Shown in pieces: positions 59,487 through 64,000 of a DNA stretch of 64,000 bases; positions within the stretch are counted from its first letter, which is position 1; the number at the start of each line of letters is the position of its first letter. A program made the position numbers and the translations under genes. This DNA comes from Thermoproteota archaeon (GTDB lineage: Archaea > Thermoproteota > Thermoprotei > Gearchaeales > Gearchaeaceae), in assembly GCA_021324265.1 (NCBI GenBank), contig JAJPJK010000009.1, forward strand, positions 70,164 to 134,163, written 5' to 3'. The notes beneath the pieces were generated by a model. The model saw only the letters and a list, made by a program, of their open reading frames with translations. It made no database searches and was not told the origin of the DNA.

Positions 59487-60467
59487 ATATTGAACCGGGC
59501 GATATGCGATTAAATATTTCAGTGAATCCTTTTAAAAGTTTTCTTATATTTCACATAGTTTCGGCAGGTGTATTTCGGACTATTGTTTTAGGGAGTATAT
59601 GGCTGTTTCAACTGCTGTCTTTCTATTGGTCTTCTTTGGAAGCGATGACCTTTCGGCAGATTTATTTTAACTGTGAAGTTCTTATAGTTTCGCTTTTAGG
59701 GCTGTTTCGGTTAATTTTAACTCCACTTCAATTTTTACCTTATTAGACTGTGCATCACTGTCTTACACTTTTCGCTGAAAATATGAAAATGCTAAAAAAG
59801 CTAGCCAATCATCAAACATATCGTATGCTTTTTACAAAACTTTCCTAGTCCTATGAACCTTCATTTGAGAAAGGGAGCTTTTGTGAAAAATGAAAGGAAT
59901 ACCTAATGAAATACAATATTCTGACTTCCTTTAGTGTCTCCTAACAGAAAAGTGTATATGTCAAAATGATTGTGAAAACTTATTTTCTCATATAACTTTA
60001 TAGTTTTAGTATTATATTCGTGGTTTTCGTTATCCTTTATGACAACATTTAGTTTTAACAGACTCTTAATTTAGATTCTCAGGAAATAAATTTCAAAAGT
60101 GGTTTCCTATAAATGAGGTTTTGGGGATTTAATTCTGTCTTGGAAGGGGATTCTGAAACTAAACATATAGGTTGTAATTATGATAATAGCAGTTTTTGCA
60201 TGTGTAGGCTTTTACTGTGAAGTTGCAGTATTTCCATGTCTTTGTCGGGTTTGGGTTTTCTGTTTTTCATTTTGGACACTTAGCCATCACGGGTCACAGT
60301 TTATCTTTTGCCAGAGTTGAATATTTATGGTTTAGTGCTAATGTTGAATTCGCATGTTGATACGTTGAGTCGAGTTCTCGCTGTTCATTTAAAAGGCTTA
60401 TATGAATATTTCTGTGTAGTTATTTGTGGAAGTGAATTTCGTTGGTGTTTGGGGTGGGTGGTTGTAG

Positions 60468-63428
60468 ATGGATAGGCGTTTTATTGAGTCTGTTAATTTT
60501 CCTTTTGGTGTGATTAGTGAGGCTTCTGCTGTTGAGAAGGGTCCTGGGAGGCCTCCCCATTGGGAGATGGTTTTTTGGTGGACTCGTAAGCCTTTGATTT
60601 CTGCTAGGGCTATTATTGCCGGTTGTTTGCTGCCTGAGAATACTAATGTAAATGAGTTTTTGTATAAGATTGGGATTAGGCGTAAGGATCGTAAAGCTGA
60701 TGGGCGGATTGTTTTTGAGCAGGCGCCTCATAGGGTTAAGCCTCTTTATCGTTTTGAGGGTGTTAGGCTTTTGGATCCTTTTGCCGGTTTTGGTTCTATT
60801 CCACTTGAGGGTTTGCGTCTCGGTCTGGATGTTACAGCTGTTGAGCTTTTGCCTGTGGCTTATGTTTTTTTGAAGGCTGTTTTGGAGTATCCGGCTAAGT
60901 ATGGCGAGAGGCTTGTTCGTGATGTGGAGCGCTGGGGGCGTTGGGTTACTGAGCGGTTAAAGGAGGATCCGCTTATTAGGGAGTTGTATGATGAGGATGT
61001 AGCAGTCTATATCGGTTCTTGGGAGGTTAAGTGTCCCCACTGTGGGCGTTGGACTCTGCTTGTTGGGAATTGGTGGCTTGCGAGGGTTAAGGCTGGCGAA
61101 GGCTACGAGAGGCTGGCTTGGATGGAACCCGTTGTAGAAGGTGATGAGGTTAAGATTAGAGTTGTGGATTTGAACAAGGTTTTGGGGAATAGAGCTGTTA
61201 AAGGCGCAAGGGTTTCTGGATTAAAGGTTGAAGCCGGTGGTAAGGAGTTTAGGGTTCCGGAAAGCAATATTGAGGCGCGGCGTGAAAAAGCCGTTTGTTT
61301 GTTCTGCCATCAGCCGATAATGCAGGTGGATCCGCAGACGGGGAGGCACTACACTGAGGCGAGGAGTTTGCCTAAAGAGGTTAAGGAGAGGCTAGAGGGC
61401 TACGTGAAACACGCCATAAAAACATACAACCAATGCCTAGAGCGAGAAGCCATAACGCCTCTTGCAAGACAAAGATTACTCGCCAAGGTGAAAGTGAAAG
61501 ACGGCGACTTAGAGTTCGAGCCATGCATAGAAAAAGACCAAGAAAAACTCGAACTAGCGAGAAAAGAAGTGGAAAAAATGCTCAGAGAAGGCGACCCAGA
61601 CATACCAAAAGAACCTGTCCCCATATATGAAGTTAGACGAATTACACCAATTCTTGGCGCTGATAAATGGTATAAGCTGTTTAATCCGCGCCAACTCTTA
61701 ACACTCGTCAAACTCGTCAAGCTGGTACGCGAAGCAGGCAAGAAAATCGAAGAAGAAAAACAAACTGAAGGATTAACTACCGAAGATGCACGCAAATACA
61801 CGGAGGCGATTGTAACTATGCTTGCTATATGTCTTGCAAACTACGAAAGACATAATGTGATAGTAACCTCAGTTGAACCAACTAGAAAGCTAGTTGCTCC
61901 TGCATTAGCTTCAAGGGGAATTGCAATGACGTGGAATTGGATAGAGGTGGACCCTAGTTTTGACATTATTGGCTCATGGGCTAAGTCTCTTGAACATACA
62001 ATTGAAGGTTTAGCATATTTCAATCTTTCATTGAAGAATCGCATAATGACGGTAAACATTATGTTAGATGATGCTACCCTATTGGGCAAGTTAAATGCTG
62101 AAGATAAGTTTGACCTAACAATAACTGACCCCCCTTATTACGATGACGTCCCCTATGCCGAGCTTAGCGACTTCTACTATGTTTGGCTTAAGAGGGCTCT
62201 AAGCGATGTTGAGGGCGGCAGGCTTATTCCACGTTTTCTGCCCGAAGCTTTCTATGAGAAAGTTGGAGATGAATGGGTTGAAGTTTCGACGCAATGGGAG
62301 AAATATGCCCTAAGCGAAGTAAGCCTTAATCCACTTAGGCTCGGCGCAGACGCGAAGTATGAGGTCGGCGTCAGGCATTTCCAGAATCTTCTTAACTCTT
62401 CGTTTATTACTATGGCTTCTAAGCTTAAGGATAATAGCTTACTGGTCACATATTATGCTCACACAGACCCTGATGCTTGGAAAGCCCTTTTAGAGGCTGG
62501 ATGGGAGGCAGCTGGCCTAATGGTCACAAATGCCTTCTCAATCACAACAGAATCAGCTCAAAGCGTAGTCAAAAGAGGAAAGCTCTCTATGGACACTAGT
62601 ATAGTTGTTGTTTGGCGGAAAGGCTGCCAAGGCTCAATTGAAGCCTCAGAACTATACAACCAAATGGTTGAAGAATCAGCCAAAAGAGCGAGAGAACTCA
62701 TGGATATTGGTGCAACAGGAAGAGACCTAGTTGTTGGAACGCTAGCAGCCTCTCTAGCAGTAGCCACAAAATACCGCGAAATAAAAGTCATAGGAAAAAT
62801 AGACACAAAAACGTTGGTCGACAATTACGTTTACCCAGCAACTTATCTGGGCTTAGCAAAAGCTCTAGCAATAAAAGCCGAACTTAAAGAAGGCGTCAAA
62901 TACTCAGACGCCATGTTCTACCTCCTAGTGAAATCCATACTACCAGGAGCAAAGAAAAAAACCTTAGAGAGCACAGATCTAAGGCTATTCTCAATAGGCA
63001 CATCCCTAGACCTCAACACAGCAATCAAAACATGGAAAATCTTGAAGGGCGAAGCGGAAACAGGCGCCAAAGTTGCAAAAGCCAAAACATACACCCTAAT
63101 AGAACCGCCTTCAACAGAACGCTCAAGCCTCGCAGAAATCCTAGAAATAAGAGGCATAAACCCAGAAAACCCCAACATAAGATGCACAGTAGACGCCCTC
63201 CACACCCTAGAATATTACGCAATAACCTTTTCAAGAGTAGATTTCAAACGCAAACTCGAACAACTCAAAAACGACTTTCCCGTACACATAGAAGAAGCCC
63301 TAACCCTAGCAAAAATCTTAGCAAAAACCATACCAAAAGAAGATCCGGAATGGGCATTATGCAAACGCATATTAGACTACTTATCACCAGAACAAAAACT
63401 TCTATTTCCAGAAAAAGGTGAACAATAA
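60468..63428 (+). CDS. N6-adenine DNA methyltransferase with DUF1156-type N-terminal domain
   Basis: Motif I is 'LLDPFAGFGSIPLEG'. Motif IV is 'LTITDPPYYDDVPY'. Size is 986 aa. The gene sits in a GC-richer segment whose codon usage is foreign to the rest of the window. Confidence 0.7.
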   Translation: MDRRFIESVNFPFGVISEASAVEKGPGRPPHWEMVFWWTRKPLISARAIIAGCLLPENTNVNEFLYKIGIRRKDRKADGRIVFEQAPHRVKPLYRFEGVRLLDPFAGFGSIPLEGLRLGLDVTAVELLPVAYVFLKAVLEYPAKYGERLVRDVERWGRWVTERLKEDPLIRELYDEDVAVYIGSWEVKCPHCGRWTLLVGNWWLARVKAGEGYERLAWMEPVVEGDEVKIRVVDLNKVLGNRAVKGARVSGLKVEAGGKEFRVPESNIEARREKAVCLFCHQPIMQVDPQTGRHYTEARSLPKEVKERLEGYVKHAIKTYNQCLEREAITPLARQRLLAKVKVKDGDLEFEPCIEKDQEKLELARKEVEKMLREGDPDIPKEPVPIYEVRRITPILGADKWYKLFNPRQLLTLVKLVKLVREAGKKIEEEKQTEGLTTEDARKYTEAIVTMLAICLANYERHNVIVTSVEPTRKLVAPALASRGIAMTWNWIEVDPSFDIIGSWAKSLEHTIEGLAYFNLSLKNRIMTVNIMLDDATLLGKLNAEDKFDLTITDPPYYDDVPYAELSDFYYVWLKRALSDVEGGRLIPRFLPEAFYEKVGDEWVEVSTQWEKYALSEVSLNPLRLGADAKYEVGVRHFQNLLNSSFITMASKLKDNSLLVTYYAHTDPDAWKALLEAGWEAAGLMVTNAFSITTESAQSVVKRGKLSMDTSIVVVWRKGCQGSIEASELYNQMVEESAKRARELMDIGATGRDLVVGTLAASLAVATKYREIKVIGKIDTKTLVDNYVYPATYLGLAKALAIKAELKEGVKYSDAMFYLLVKSILPGAKKKTLESTDLRLFSIGTSLDLNTAIKTWKILKGEAETGAKVAKAKTYTLIEPPSTERSSLAEILEIRGINPENPNIRCTVDALHTLEYYAITFSRVDFKRKLEQLKNDFPVHIEEALTLAKILAKTIPKEDPEWALCKRILDYLSPEQKLLFPEKGEQ

Positions 63429-64000
63429 TGGGAATACTGAACCACATAAAAAACGGCTTGATGGAAGTATGGAACGACATATACGACGCAAGACTAGACG
63501 ATAAAGCAGCTCCAGACCTAGGCGACCTCTTGAAAAGCGAAGAAGAACCCATATACGCAAACCCAAAAGAATTCTTCAACAGAACATACCTAACAAAATC
63601 CATAGAAAACCTCATAGAAGACATAGCCGAAACCCTCAAAAACGGAAAAGGCGGGGCCATATACCTCCTAACCTCTCTTTTCGGCGGAGGAAAAACCCAT
63701 ACCCAAATTACGCTTTACCACGCCTTCACAAGCCCCGAAAACCTAGGAGAAATAAACCAGCAACTAGCTGCAAAGATAGCAGAGGTAGGCAAACCGACAA
63801 TAATAGTAATGGACGGAAGCAGAGCCGATCTCATCCCACACCCAAAAGAACCATGCAAAGTCGGAGACTTCAACATAAAAACAATATGGGGCATGCTCGC
63901 CTACAAGCTCGGCGCATACAGCAAAGTAAAACACCTCGACACTGAAAAAGCCCCAGCCCCCGACGTAACCCTCATAAAAAGCATACTAGCCGAATCAAAA
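63427..64000 (+). CDS. DUF499-family (BrxC-like) P-loop ATPase, 5' partial (runs off window end)
   Basis: Not in the supplied ORF list because no stop occurs before the window end. The translation is MGILNHIKNG...'YLLTSLFGGGKTHTQITLYHAF', the DUF499 Walker-A block. Its start overlaps the MTase stop (ATAATGG). Confidence 0.6.

Follow-up and report, generated by a model that had tools for sequence, protein, structure and literature searches.

To which defence system, if any, does a pair of genes at the end of an archaeal contig belong, and how did it come to stand there? The stretch analyzed here, the window, comprises 64,000 nucleotides of a Thermoproteota archaeon (GCA_021324265.1, contig JAJPJK010000009.1), and its last ~4 kb are GC-richer DNA encoding a DUF1156 DNA methyltransferase (MTase) and the beginning of a DUF499 ATPase. 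An earlier note, made from the letters of the window, had read these genes as part of a BREX (bacteriophage exclusion)-like or novel restriction-modification-like (RM-like) defence module. We find it highly probable that they open a horizontally acquired island of ~12 kb with a methylation-based, restriction-like system against viruses and plasmids, of the Hma / Type-1 DUF499-centred BREX-related (BR) kind. The family to which the locus belongs is known and was named recently, and the locus is not novel as a kind. This reading is carried by gene content, gene order, domain identities, intact catalytic motifs, the conservation of the five-gene operon and a foreign base composition; from these we infer a defence phenotype in the host, as well as the roles proposed below for a small protein and a beta-CASP nuclease.

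The two genes in the window and their catalytic motifs are laid out as follows, where invariance refers to an alignment of 14 MTase homologues (A1):

Positions 60468–63428, plus strand: DUF1156 N6-adenine DNA MTase of 986 aa (HmaB / BR-MTase / MtsC-like), from open reading frame (ORF), Pfam and PADLOC.
Positions 60774–60794, plus strand: MTase motif I, DPFAGFG (S-adenosylmethionine binding), aa 103–109, invariant in A1.
Positions 62127–62138, plus strand: MTase motif IV, DPPY (catalytic), aa 554–557, invariant in A1.
Positions 63428–64000, plus strand: first 190 codons of a DUF499 ORC/Cdc6-type AAA+ ATPase (HmaC / MtsA-like), from translation, Pfam and PADLOC.
Positions 63677–63700, plus strand: Walker A block LFGGGKTH, ATPase aa 84–91, from translation.

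The 986-aa N6-adenine MTase with its two motifs and DUF1156-like N-terminus, as first described from the letters, was borne out by the Pfam search (DUF1156, E 6e-10, above the gathering score), and the fragment of the ATPase in the window likewise exceeded the curated threshold for DUF499 (E 1e-19). The best PADLOC match of the MTase was the ‘Type II methyltransferase’ model MTase_II (890 bits), and HmaB was matched with an E-value of 1e-49. At full length, on the contig L001 described below, the ATPase has 1122 aa and covers nearly the whole Pfam DUF499 model (829 bits, model positions 4–1022), with HmaC as a PADLOC match (E 1.5e-51). The stop codon of the MTase and the start codon of the ATPase have one base in common (TAATG), in agreement with the overlap reported earlier. 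The P-loop block LFGGGKTH was also correctly located, and its interpretation as a DUF499/BrxC signature held for DUF499 but not for BrxC: in PADLOC the ATPase matched only the HmaC and DUF499 models, and the BrxC model gave no match. No solved relative of the MTase or the ATPase was found by sequence.

The remainder of the system had been placed beyond the end of the window, and it was found there. Downstream DNA was taken from contig L001 (ENA ERZ27279669), identified via the exact MTase sequence, which is present on two public contigs. L001 is 100% identical to positions 50468–64000 of the window over 13,533 nt and runs 9.4 kb further (window coordinates are L001 coordinates + 50467); the downstream proteins are recorded a second time, on a 221,891-nt contig. 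Besides the rest of the ATPase gene, L001 contains three more genes, which complete a five-gene operon built on an MTase, a DUF499 ATPase and an Snf2 helicase-nuclease. All genes lie on the plus strand in the order MTase, DUF499 ATPase, 143-aa protein, Snf2 helicase with NOV_C domain, and metallo-beta-lactamase (MBL) / beta-CASP nuclease; at the junctions, neighbouring genes overlap or are separated by 14 nt or less, and all five reading frames are intact. The beta-CASP gene is followed by 0.8 kb of GC-richer non-coding DNA, a tRNA-Ala(GGC) gene on the minus strand, and host genes for LSM and PUA proteins. Since host genes lie on both sides, the island measures ~12 kb and is situated between tRNA-Val and tRNA-Ala.

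The fourth gene encodes a 986-aa helicase with the Pfam domains SNF2-rel_dom, Helicase_C and, at the C-terminus, NOV_C (E 2.4e-17). In PADLOC it matched HmaA (E 1.2e-54) and BrxHII (E 1.8e-49), and it also matched ResIII and, with E 2.5e-53, DrmD. Its helicase motifs are GLGKT (aa 64) and DEVH (aa 161), and the nuclease residues D897 and E912-x-K914 are conserved in at least 90% of 22 sequences. The fifth gene encodes a 420-aa MBL / beta-CASP protein, whose motifs HxHxDH, HSA, TGD, EGTN, SGH and HT are kept in ten orthologues; among proteins with a solved structure, RNase J enzymes and E. faecalis EF2904 are closest to it. It resembles RNase J / aCPSF-type beta-CASP proteins in its full set of MBL and beta-CASP motifs, with a histidine in motif C, but differs from them in that members of the island subfamily, of which 308 are in the database, always stood directly after an Snf2-NOV_C helicase in the cases examined. 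The gene directly follows the helicase in 10 of the ~17 loci with enough downstream DNA. In an independent look-up of four more distant members (51–61% identity), all four were found directly after such a helicase; two of these loci had the whole DUF1156-DUF499-small-helicase-MBL operon and two ran off the contig upstream. Judged from these sequences, a dedicated beta-CASP nuclease is a conserved fifth gene of the operon, which goes beyond the literature that could be searched; the terms ‘lactamase’, ‘CASP’ and ‘DUF7680’ do not occur in the main text of PMC12839542. Host beta-CASP/MBL proteins flank the island, one of 420 aa at 57057–58319, 2 kb upstream, and another at L001 22829–22961, after the PUA gene; both are only distant relatives of the island nuclease. 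Duplication of the host 420-aa protein as the origin of the island protein was rejected, the two being 25% identical in the N-terminal half only.

An archaeal operon of the composition COG1743, DUF499 and Snf2-nuclease was noted in 2020 (PMC7641849), and the island has the same order of MTase, DUF499 and helicase-nuclease. In a set of 54 archaeal loci, taken from species-representative genomes, most of those that are long enough to show it have MTase, DUF499, (small ORF) and helicase in this succession. The Hma system has since been published, with HmaA, an Snf2 plus NOV_C protein, protecting E. coli against T4 through its nickase activity (PMC11232893), and a Type-1 DUF499-centred BR system has been defined (PMC12839542). 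DUF499-centred BR systems occur in ~3,600 prokaryotic taxa, are relatively commoner in archaea than BREX, and are the closest relatives of Type-3 BREX (PMC12839542). With Hma / Type-1 BR the island has in common a DUF1156 N6-MTase with a nested recognition insert, a DUF499 ORC/Cdc6-type AAA+ ATPase, and an Snf2 helicase with a C-terminal NOV_C PD-(D/E)xK nuclease, and the PADLOC models HmaA, HmaB and HmaC gave the best system-specific matches of the three large proteins. It differs from them in its helicase, which has no Tudor domain, in its ATPase, which has no HEPN fusion, and in two additional conserved genes, for a 143-aa DUF7680-like protein and the beta-CASP MBL nuclease; its host, unlike that of Hma, is a thermophile-type archaeon and not a bacterium. 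Hence the suggestion of a novel kind of RM-like module is superseded by the published Hma and Type-1 BR systems, while the alternative wording of the earlier note, a predicted and poorly characterized RM-like system with an MTase and DUF499 pair, has proved apt: the operon is completed downstream and its type is now published.

The pair of genes in the window could also have belonged to a canonical BREX system (types 1–6) whose PglZ and Brx genes lay beyond the window. DUF499 ATPases are BrxC relatives, the MTase resembles BrxX of Type-3 BREX and the helicase resembles BrxHII; of the Type-3 set (BrxC, BrxXI MTase, BrxHII helicase, PglZ, BrxA, BrxF), the ATPase, the MTase and the Snf2 helicase are homologous to those of the island. 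The island, however, lacks PglZ, BrxA and BrxF, its MTase has a DUF1156 N-terminus, and its helicase carries a predicted active nuclease. Among the complete island genes on L001 there was no PglZ, BrxA, BrxB or BrxL, which means that the system is not BREX proper; PglW was also absent, the ATPase gave no match to BrxC, and the full island consists of five genes followed by non-coding DNA, tRNA-Ala and host genes. Canonical BREX is already refuted for this locus and we regard it as extremely improbable, so that of the proposed BREX type only the relationship, BREX-related, stands.

Equally improbable is an ordinary Type I, Type III or DISARM operon that was misread through shared helicase and methylase domains. 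The matches of the helicase to ResIII and DrmD and the best match of the MTase to a Type II model are what such an operon would give. Against it, the island has no HsdS/HsdR, no Mod/Res pair, and no DrmA, DrmB (DUF1998) or DrmC (PLD), and the similarity of the helicase to DrmD amounts to 201 bits compared with a cut-off of 610. In place of these components stands a DUF499 ATPase that fills nearly its whole Pfam model. The Type I/III operon that the earlier note had named as the outcome opposed to its own proposal is thus not what the downstream genes revealed.

The standalone small protein between the core genes brings in a closer rival, the Type-2 BR system MANTIS (Gao_RL, MtsA–D), which likewise combines a DUF499 ATPase, a small accessory protein, a DUF1156 MTase and a helicase-nuclease. 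The 143-aa protein of the island had no match in Pfam, PADLOC or NCBIfam, and hence none to DUF3780, the small protein of MANTIS; its 76 homologues are all unnamed, and none has a Pfam match. An AlphaFold model (pLDDT 89.5, pTM 0.84) predicts an alpha+beta protein with four strands and five helices, numbers that agree with the published description of DUF3780. The model had no meaningful solved structural neighbour; MtsB is likewise without structural homologues according to the MANTIS authors (bioRxiv 10.64898/2026.09.23.753747). In more distant loci, the small proteins at the same operon position include Pfam DUF7680 members, and profile-profile comparison of the 143-aa group with DUF7680-type proteins gave a probability of 93% (E 4e-7) over the C-terminal 57 residues, with the motif [HY][FY]WAS-x-F common to both. 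On a Rhodococcus plasmid, a DUF7680 protein (E 5e-28) is encoded between DUF499 and DUF1156, upstream of a PLD-Snf2 helicase, which places DUF7680 in the MtsB slot of a MANTIS-type operon. By profile similarity, the 143-aa protein is a remote DUF7680 relative, again beyond the literature that could be searched, and its position together with this remote homology makes it a likely MtsB analogue. In the bacterial plasmid loci L059 (7346–7966) and L060 (7410–7892), a small unnamed gene was observed between the DUF1156 and DUF499 core genes, encoding 206 aa without a Pfam match in Nostoc and 160 aa matching DUF7680 in Rhodococcus. In these systems, a small fourth component may be commoner than the description with three genes would lead one to expect.

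The strand and helix count, the DUF7680 kinship and a helicase that, as in Type-2, has no Tudor domain are the points in favour of MANTIS. Other characters differ. MANTIS has an N-terminal PLD/HKD nuclease on its helicase, a DUF3780 small protein and the gene order A-B-C-D, that is, ATPase-small-MTase-helicase, whereas the island has a C-terminal NOV_C PD-(D/E)xK nuclease, a small protein that gave no DUF3780 match in Pfam, PADLOC or NCBIfam, an extra beta-CASP gene and the order MTase-ATPase-small-helicase. The island helicase had no PLDc match in Pfam, and the NCBIfam phospholipase-D anti-phage model scored 124 bits against a cut-off of 1100, in its helicase part only. The NCBIfam ‘anti-phage-associated’ models for DUF1156, DUF499 and PLD were all matched far below their cut-offs, at about one tenth, which shows that the system is not a Type-2 / Gao_RL equivalog. 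We consider an assignment to Type-2 very unlikely, and retain Hma / Type-1 BR.

Several observations nevertheless weigh against the assignment to Hma / Type-1 BR or its restriction-like interpretation, among them the low scores of the three NCBIfam models just given. In Halomonas, HmaA alone was protective and methylation by HmaB had no effect on T4 sensitivity (PMC11232893), so that an RM-like logic is unproven even for the type system. For this locus, as for any archaeal member, methylation and restriction are predicted activities. The helicase lacks the N-terminal Tudor domain that is listed for Type-1 and Type-3 BR helicases (PMC12839542): its ResIII/DEAD core begins at aa 41, which leaves no room for a domain of ~75 aa, and in more distant loci such as L041 the helicase does begin with a Tudor/SH3-like segment. 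The published description of Type-1 comprises three genes where five are found here. Finally, a related copy, L061, has a fragmented MTase and ATPase, and such islands do decay. The five-gene form without a helicase Tudor domain, with a DUF7680-like MtsB analogue and a beta-CASP nuclease, would be an undescribed archaeal BR subtype.

The decay of L061 bears on a further alternative, namely that the island is a selfish, toxin-antitoxin (TA)-like addiction module or a decaying relic with no net defence in its host. TA-like behaviour of the archaeal COG1743-DUF499-Snf2-nuclease operon has been proposed by the Koonin group (PMC7641849), L061 is pseudogenized, and a zinc-ribbon ORF that flanks the island is broken in the window. 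A relic, on the other hand, would hardly be expected to have five intact frames, conserved catalytic motifs throughout and evident purifying selection: third-position changes dominate, and the proteins are 78–88% identical to those of the related islands L002 and L003. This alternative is in our judgement unlikely, if less so than the three others. On its 712-kb contig (73–6581), the related island L061 itself has a DUF1156 gene and a DUF499 gene that are both broken into three fragments, with the genes for the small protein, the helicase and the beta-CASP protein intact and with the same strong strand skew as described below; we take it to be a decaying copy.

The island also differs from its surroundings in base composition. 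Host DNA of the window had a GC content of 0.351 (sd 0.041, 216 windows of 500 nt, rRNA operon excluded), compared with 0.443 for positions 60200–64000; all 14 island windows had values of 0.414–0.50, and the island mean was reached by only 2 of the 216 host windows. The GC-richer segment reported to begin at ~60.1 kb is hence real, with a break from 35% to 44% GC at ~60.17–60.2 kb, where windowed GC and the first reading agree. The accompanying statement that all upstream DNA is uniformly AT-rich fits the 35.1% GC of the host but overlooked an rRNA operon of 59% GC at 24085–28794. On the left flank, three features define the edge of the island:

Positions 59412–59486, minus strand: tRNA-Val(GAC), a host gene on the left flank with its 5' side toward the island (ARAGORN; Rfam tRNA, 60.3 bits).
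Positions 60170–60200, no strand: approximate left border of the acquired DNA, from three lines of evidence.
Positions 60189–60287, minus strand: remnant of a small divergent zinc-ribbon ORF (blastn/tblastx, alignment and sequence).

The tRNA-Val gene lies 981 nt from the ATG of the MTase and ~0.7 kb from the compositional break. The border was placed where skewed G+T-rich, GC-richer DNA begins (~60.17–60.2 kb), where a 99-nt block common to two other islands begins (60189, blastn/tblastx), and where a JGI contig of independent origin, which matches the host flank at 100%, comes to an end (60197). The two islands, L039 and L045, come from Bathyarchaeota-labelled genomes and match the block upstream of their MTase with 76–83% nucleotide identity. 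In both, it is the start of an open frame (MAKCPACK...CKNC), whereas in the window the frame, which is divergent from the MTase and has its ATG at 60287–60285, meets an in-frame TGA six codons later (MAKCPK, stop). Such islands may use the zinc-ribbon ORF as an accessory or regulatory gene. On the opposite side, the non-coding DNA between the beta-CASP gene and tRNA-Ala (L001 20997–21784, ~43% GC) contained no ORF of at least 60 aa, matched nothing in Rfam and resembled none of the other loci; it may be island DNA that has decayed.

Site-specific integration at a tRNA gene was considered and rejected. No integrase was found among the genes of the whole island, which extends the earlier observation that none is visible, no direct repeats flank the island, and the 3' segment of tRNA-Ala was not found a second time when up to three mismatches were allowed. 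An empty site was not found in public assemblies: all contigs recovered by way of the L38e protein on the flank were identical to the window. The tRNA-Ala at the far end, outside the window, has its 3' end toward the island. Without an integrase or an att repeat, tRNA-targeted integration is unsupported, and of the classic integration site envisaged at first there stands the position of tRNA-Val at the flank of the island, but the gene faces the island with its 5' side. In Rfam searches at permissive thresholds over window positions 59.4–60.5 kb and L001 20.9–21.9 kb, only the two tRNAs were detected, and scans of the non-coding flanks for promoters and terminators stayed at chance level with models that are bacterial and unsuited to an archaeon.

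Within the MTase, two further segments bear on the recognition of DNA:

Positions 61032–61307, plus strand: four-cysteine zinc ribbon, CPHC at aa 189–192 and CLFC at aa 277–280 (alignment A1).
Positions 61776–62103, plus strand: hypervariable segment, MTase aa ~437–545 (A1 columns 480–600; blastn breaks against L002 and L003).

The zinc ribbon belongs to the insert that separates motif I from motif IV, and none of its four cysteines varies in A1. The segment of aa ~437–545 could not be aligned even where the islands are otherwise ~83% identical in DNA, which is consistent with a swapped target-recognition region that would diversify specificity. The MTase has 904 database homologues, the best 120 of which are 65–83% identical and carry the labels Bathyarchaeia, Sulfolobales, Fervidicoccaceae, Methanomethylicia, Korarchaeum, Nitrososphaerota, Thermofilaceae and Jordarchaeales. 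Such identity across distant thermophilic archaeal labels implies frequent exchange between them.

The codon preferences of the island had been described as different from those of the host. They are, in the form of a keto/amino skew (G+T versus A+C), mainly at third codon positions, whose polarity flips inside the MTase gene between two tracts:

Positions 60000–61430, plus strand: G+T-rich tract, which takes in MTase codons 1 to ~320 (third positions 62–97% G/T) and ~470 nt of non-coding DNA before them.
Positions 62500–64000, plus strand: A+C-rich tract, from MTase codon ~680 on and, past the end of the window, through the whole of DUF499, third positions 71–95% A/C.

Silent sites are ~90% G/T in the first ~280 MTase codons and ~83% A/C from codon ~700 through DUF499. 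At two-fold sites of MTase codons 1–280, pyrimidines are 89% T and purines 82% G; the final ~285 MTase codons have 25% T and 9% G, DUF499 has 14% T and 12% G, and host genes have 67–72% T and 33–36% G. Per 40 MTase codons, the third-position G/T share falls from 0.97 to 0.62 over codons 1–320, is 0.23–0.33 at codons 321–440 and 0.47–0.70 at codons 441–680, and then declines from 0.35 to 0.05. In windows of 600 nt, the skew of the island reaches +0.40 and -0.35, compared with a mean of 0.00 (sd 0.05, range -0.15 to +0.15) in 297 host windows. The skewed region also spans L001 9500–16800, and the helicase and beta-CASP genes are nearly neutral. The skew was found in a sub-lineage (L001, L003, L061, L036, L039, L006; weakly in L002), was absent in L064 and L025, and had a different polarity in L004, L005 and L019.

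For the substitutions, L002, a relative with only weak skew, was compared with the pair of L001 and L003 where these two agree. Silent differences were almost all transitions and ran in one direction: 42 of 49 in the N-terminal part of the MTase gene were C or A in L002 versus T or G in the pair, and 131 of 172 in DUF499 were G or T in L002 versus A or C. In the helicase gene, T/C differences were balanced (34 versus 31), and G/A differences (26 versus 14) had the direction of ordinary AT pressure. First and second codon positions changed in the same directions as silent sites. An assembly artefact was rejected, since the ENA and NCBI assemblies, the only independent ones that span the skewed DNA, are 100% identical to the window; the JGI contig (100% match, ending at 60197) and a Logan contig (ending at 59442) cover mainly the host flank. 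Translational codon selection is unlikely because the skew extends into ~470 nt of non-coding DNA and replacement sites are biased alike. A literature search on keto skew at synonymous sites in archaea returned nothing relevant.

It is conceivable, though we hold it to be rather doubtful, that the MTase-ATPase half of the island records a local, strand-specific transition pressure, which we did not find described in the literature searched. Changes from A to G together with C to T on one strand would be the signature to expect where amino bases are deaminated on exposed single-stranded DNA. The pressure would be local, would differ in polarity between gene modules and would leave the adjacent helicase and nuclease genes untouched. 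Possible causes include persistent sense and antisense transcription or R-loops over toxic genes at high temperature. The modules may also have resided for long on mobile replicons with asymmetric replication and have recombined afterwards, or the strand bias may be adaptive, in that it holds asymmetric restriction sites in one orientation. A long-range RNA pairing, suggested by a 30-nt inverted repeat (87% complementary) between the MTase leader and the start of the 143-aa gene, was rejected as a by-product of the opposite base compositions: its duplex energy of -50.4 did not surpass the values of other DUF499 windows (mean -43.7, minimum -51.4), and it was not found in L003 (z +0.7).

How might such a system work? 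MANTIS provides the best working model because it is the only relative with a worked-out mechanism (bioRxiv 10.64898/2026.09.23.753747), and each step below is carried over by analogy from this sister system and from the HmaA experiments. The AAA+ ATPase would load the MTase on short asymmetric sites, with the small protein acting as a co-activator that stimulates methylation, and host sites would become methylated on one strand (hemimethylated). Unmodified sites on invading DNA would be bound by the same complex, which would then license the helicase-nuclease to translocate at the expense of ATP and to nick or cut; the activity of HmaA shown by experiment is nicking (PMC11232893). The beta-CASP enzyme would probably degrade the damaged nucleic acid further, plausibly as an exonuclease that follows up on DNA already nicked or cut, or acts on RNA.

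The remaining features of the window concern the host. A complete archaeal 23S-16S rRNA operon with 59% GC lies on the minus strand at 24085–28794, and the window also contains an archaeal RNase P RNA and four tRNAs; within 24085–29408, the rRNA operon (23S, 16S) is followed by tRNA-Ile and then by the RNase P RNA. An excess of this size in structural RNAs of a 35% GC genome suggests a thermophilic host, which is probably a low-GC, thermophilic archaeon. Two more stretches above the host mean (41–46% GC) were observed at 31500–33250 and 46000–47750. The same DNA is present in NCBI GCA_035294585.1 (L056), a metagenome-assembled genome labelled ‘Geobacterales bacterium’, a bacterial order. Since TgtA, ribosomal protein L38e and archaeal forms of the rRNAs and of RNase P are all encoded in the window, this label appears to be wrong; that it arose by confusion with the archaeal name Geoarchaeales is conjecture only.

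A defence locus was an expected find, and our analysis mainly confirms the first reading and supplies the published name; the five-gene archaeal form is one of hundreds of copies. The parts worth following are this five-gene form and the silent-site skew. With proteins 65–88% identical over Bathyarchaeia, Sulfolobales, Korarchaeia, Methanomethylicia, Nitrososphaeria and Asgard-labelled genomes, the high identity together with the swapped recognition segment makes a clear case of rapid exchange of immunity genes between phyla in hot environments. From the skew, something could be learned about the transcription, replication or transfer of such islands. Should the small protein have the function of MtsB, the loading of the MTase by an ATPase plus a cofactor would be general in BR systems and not a peculiarity of Type-2.

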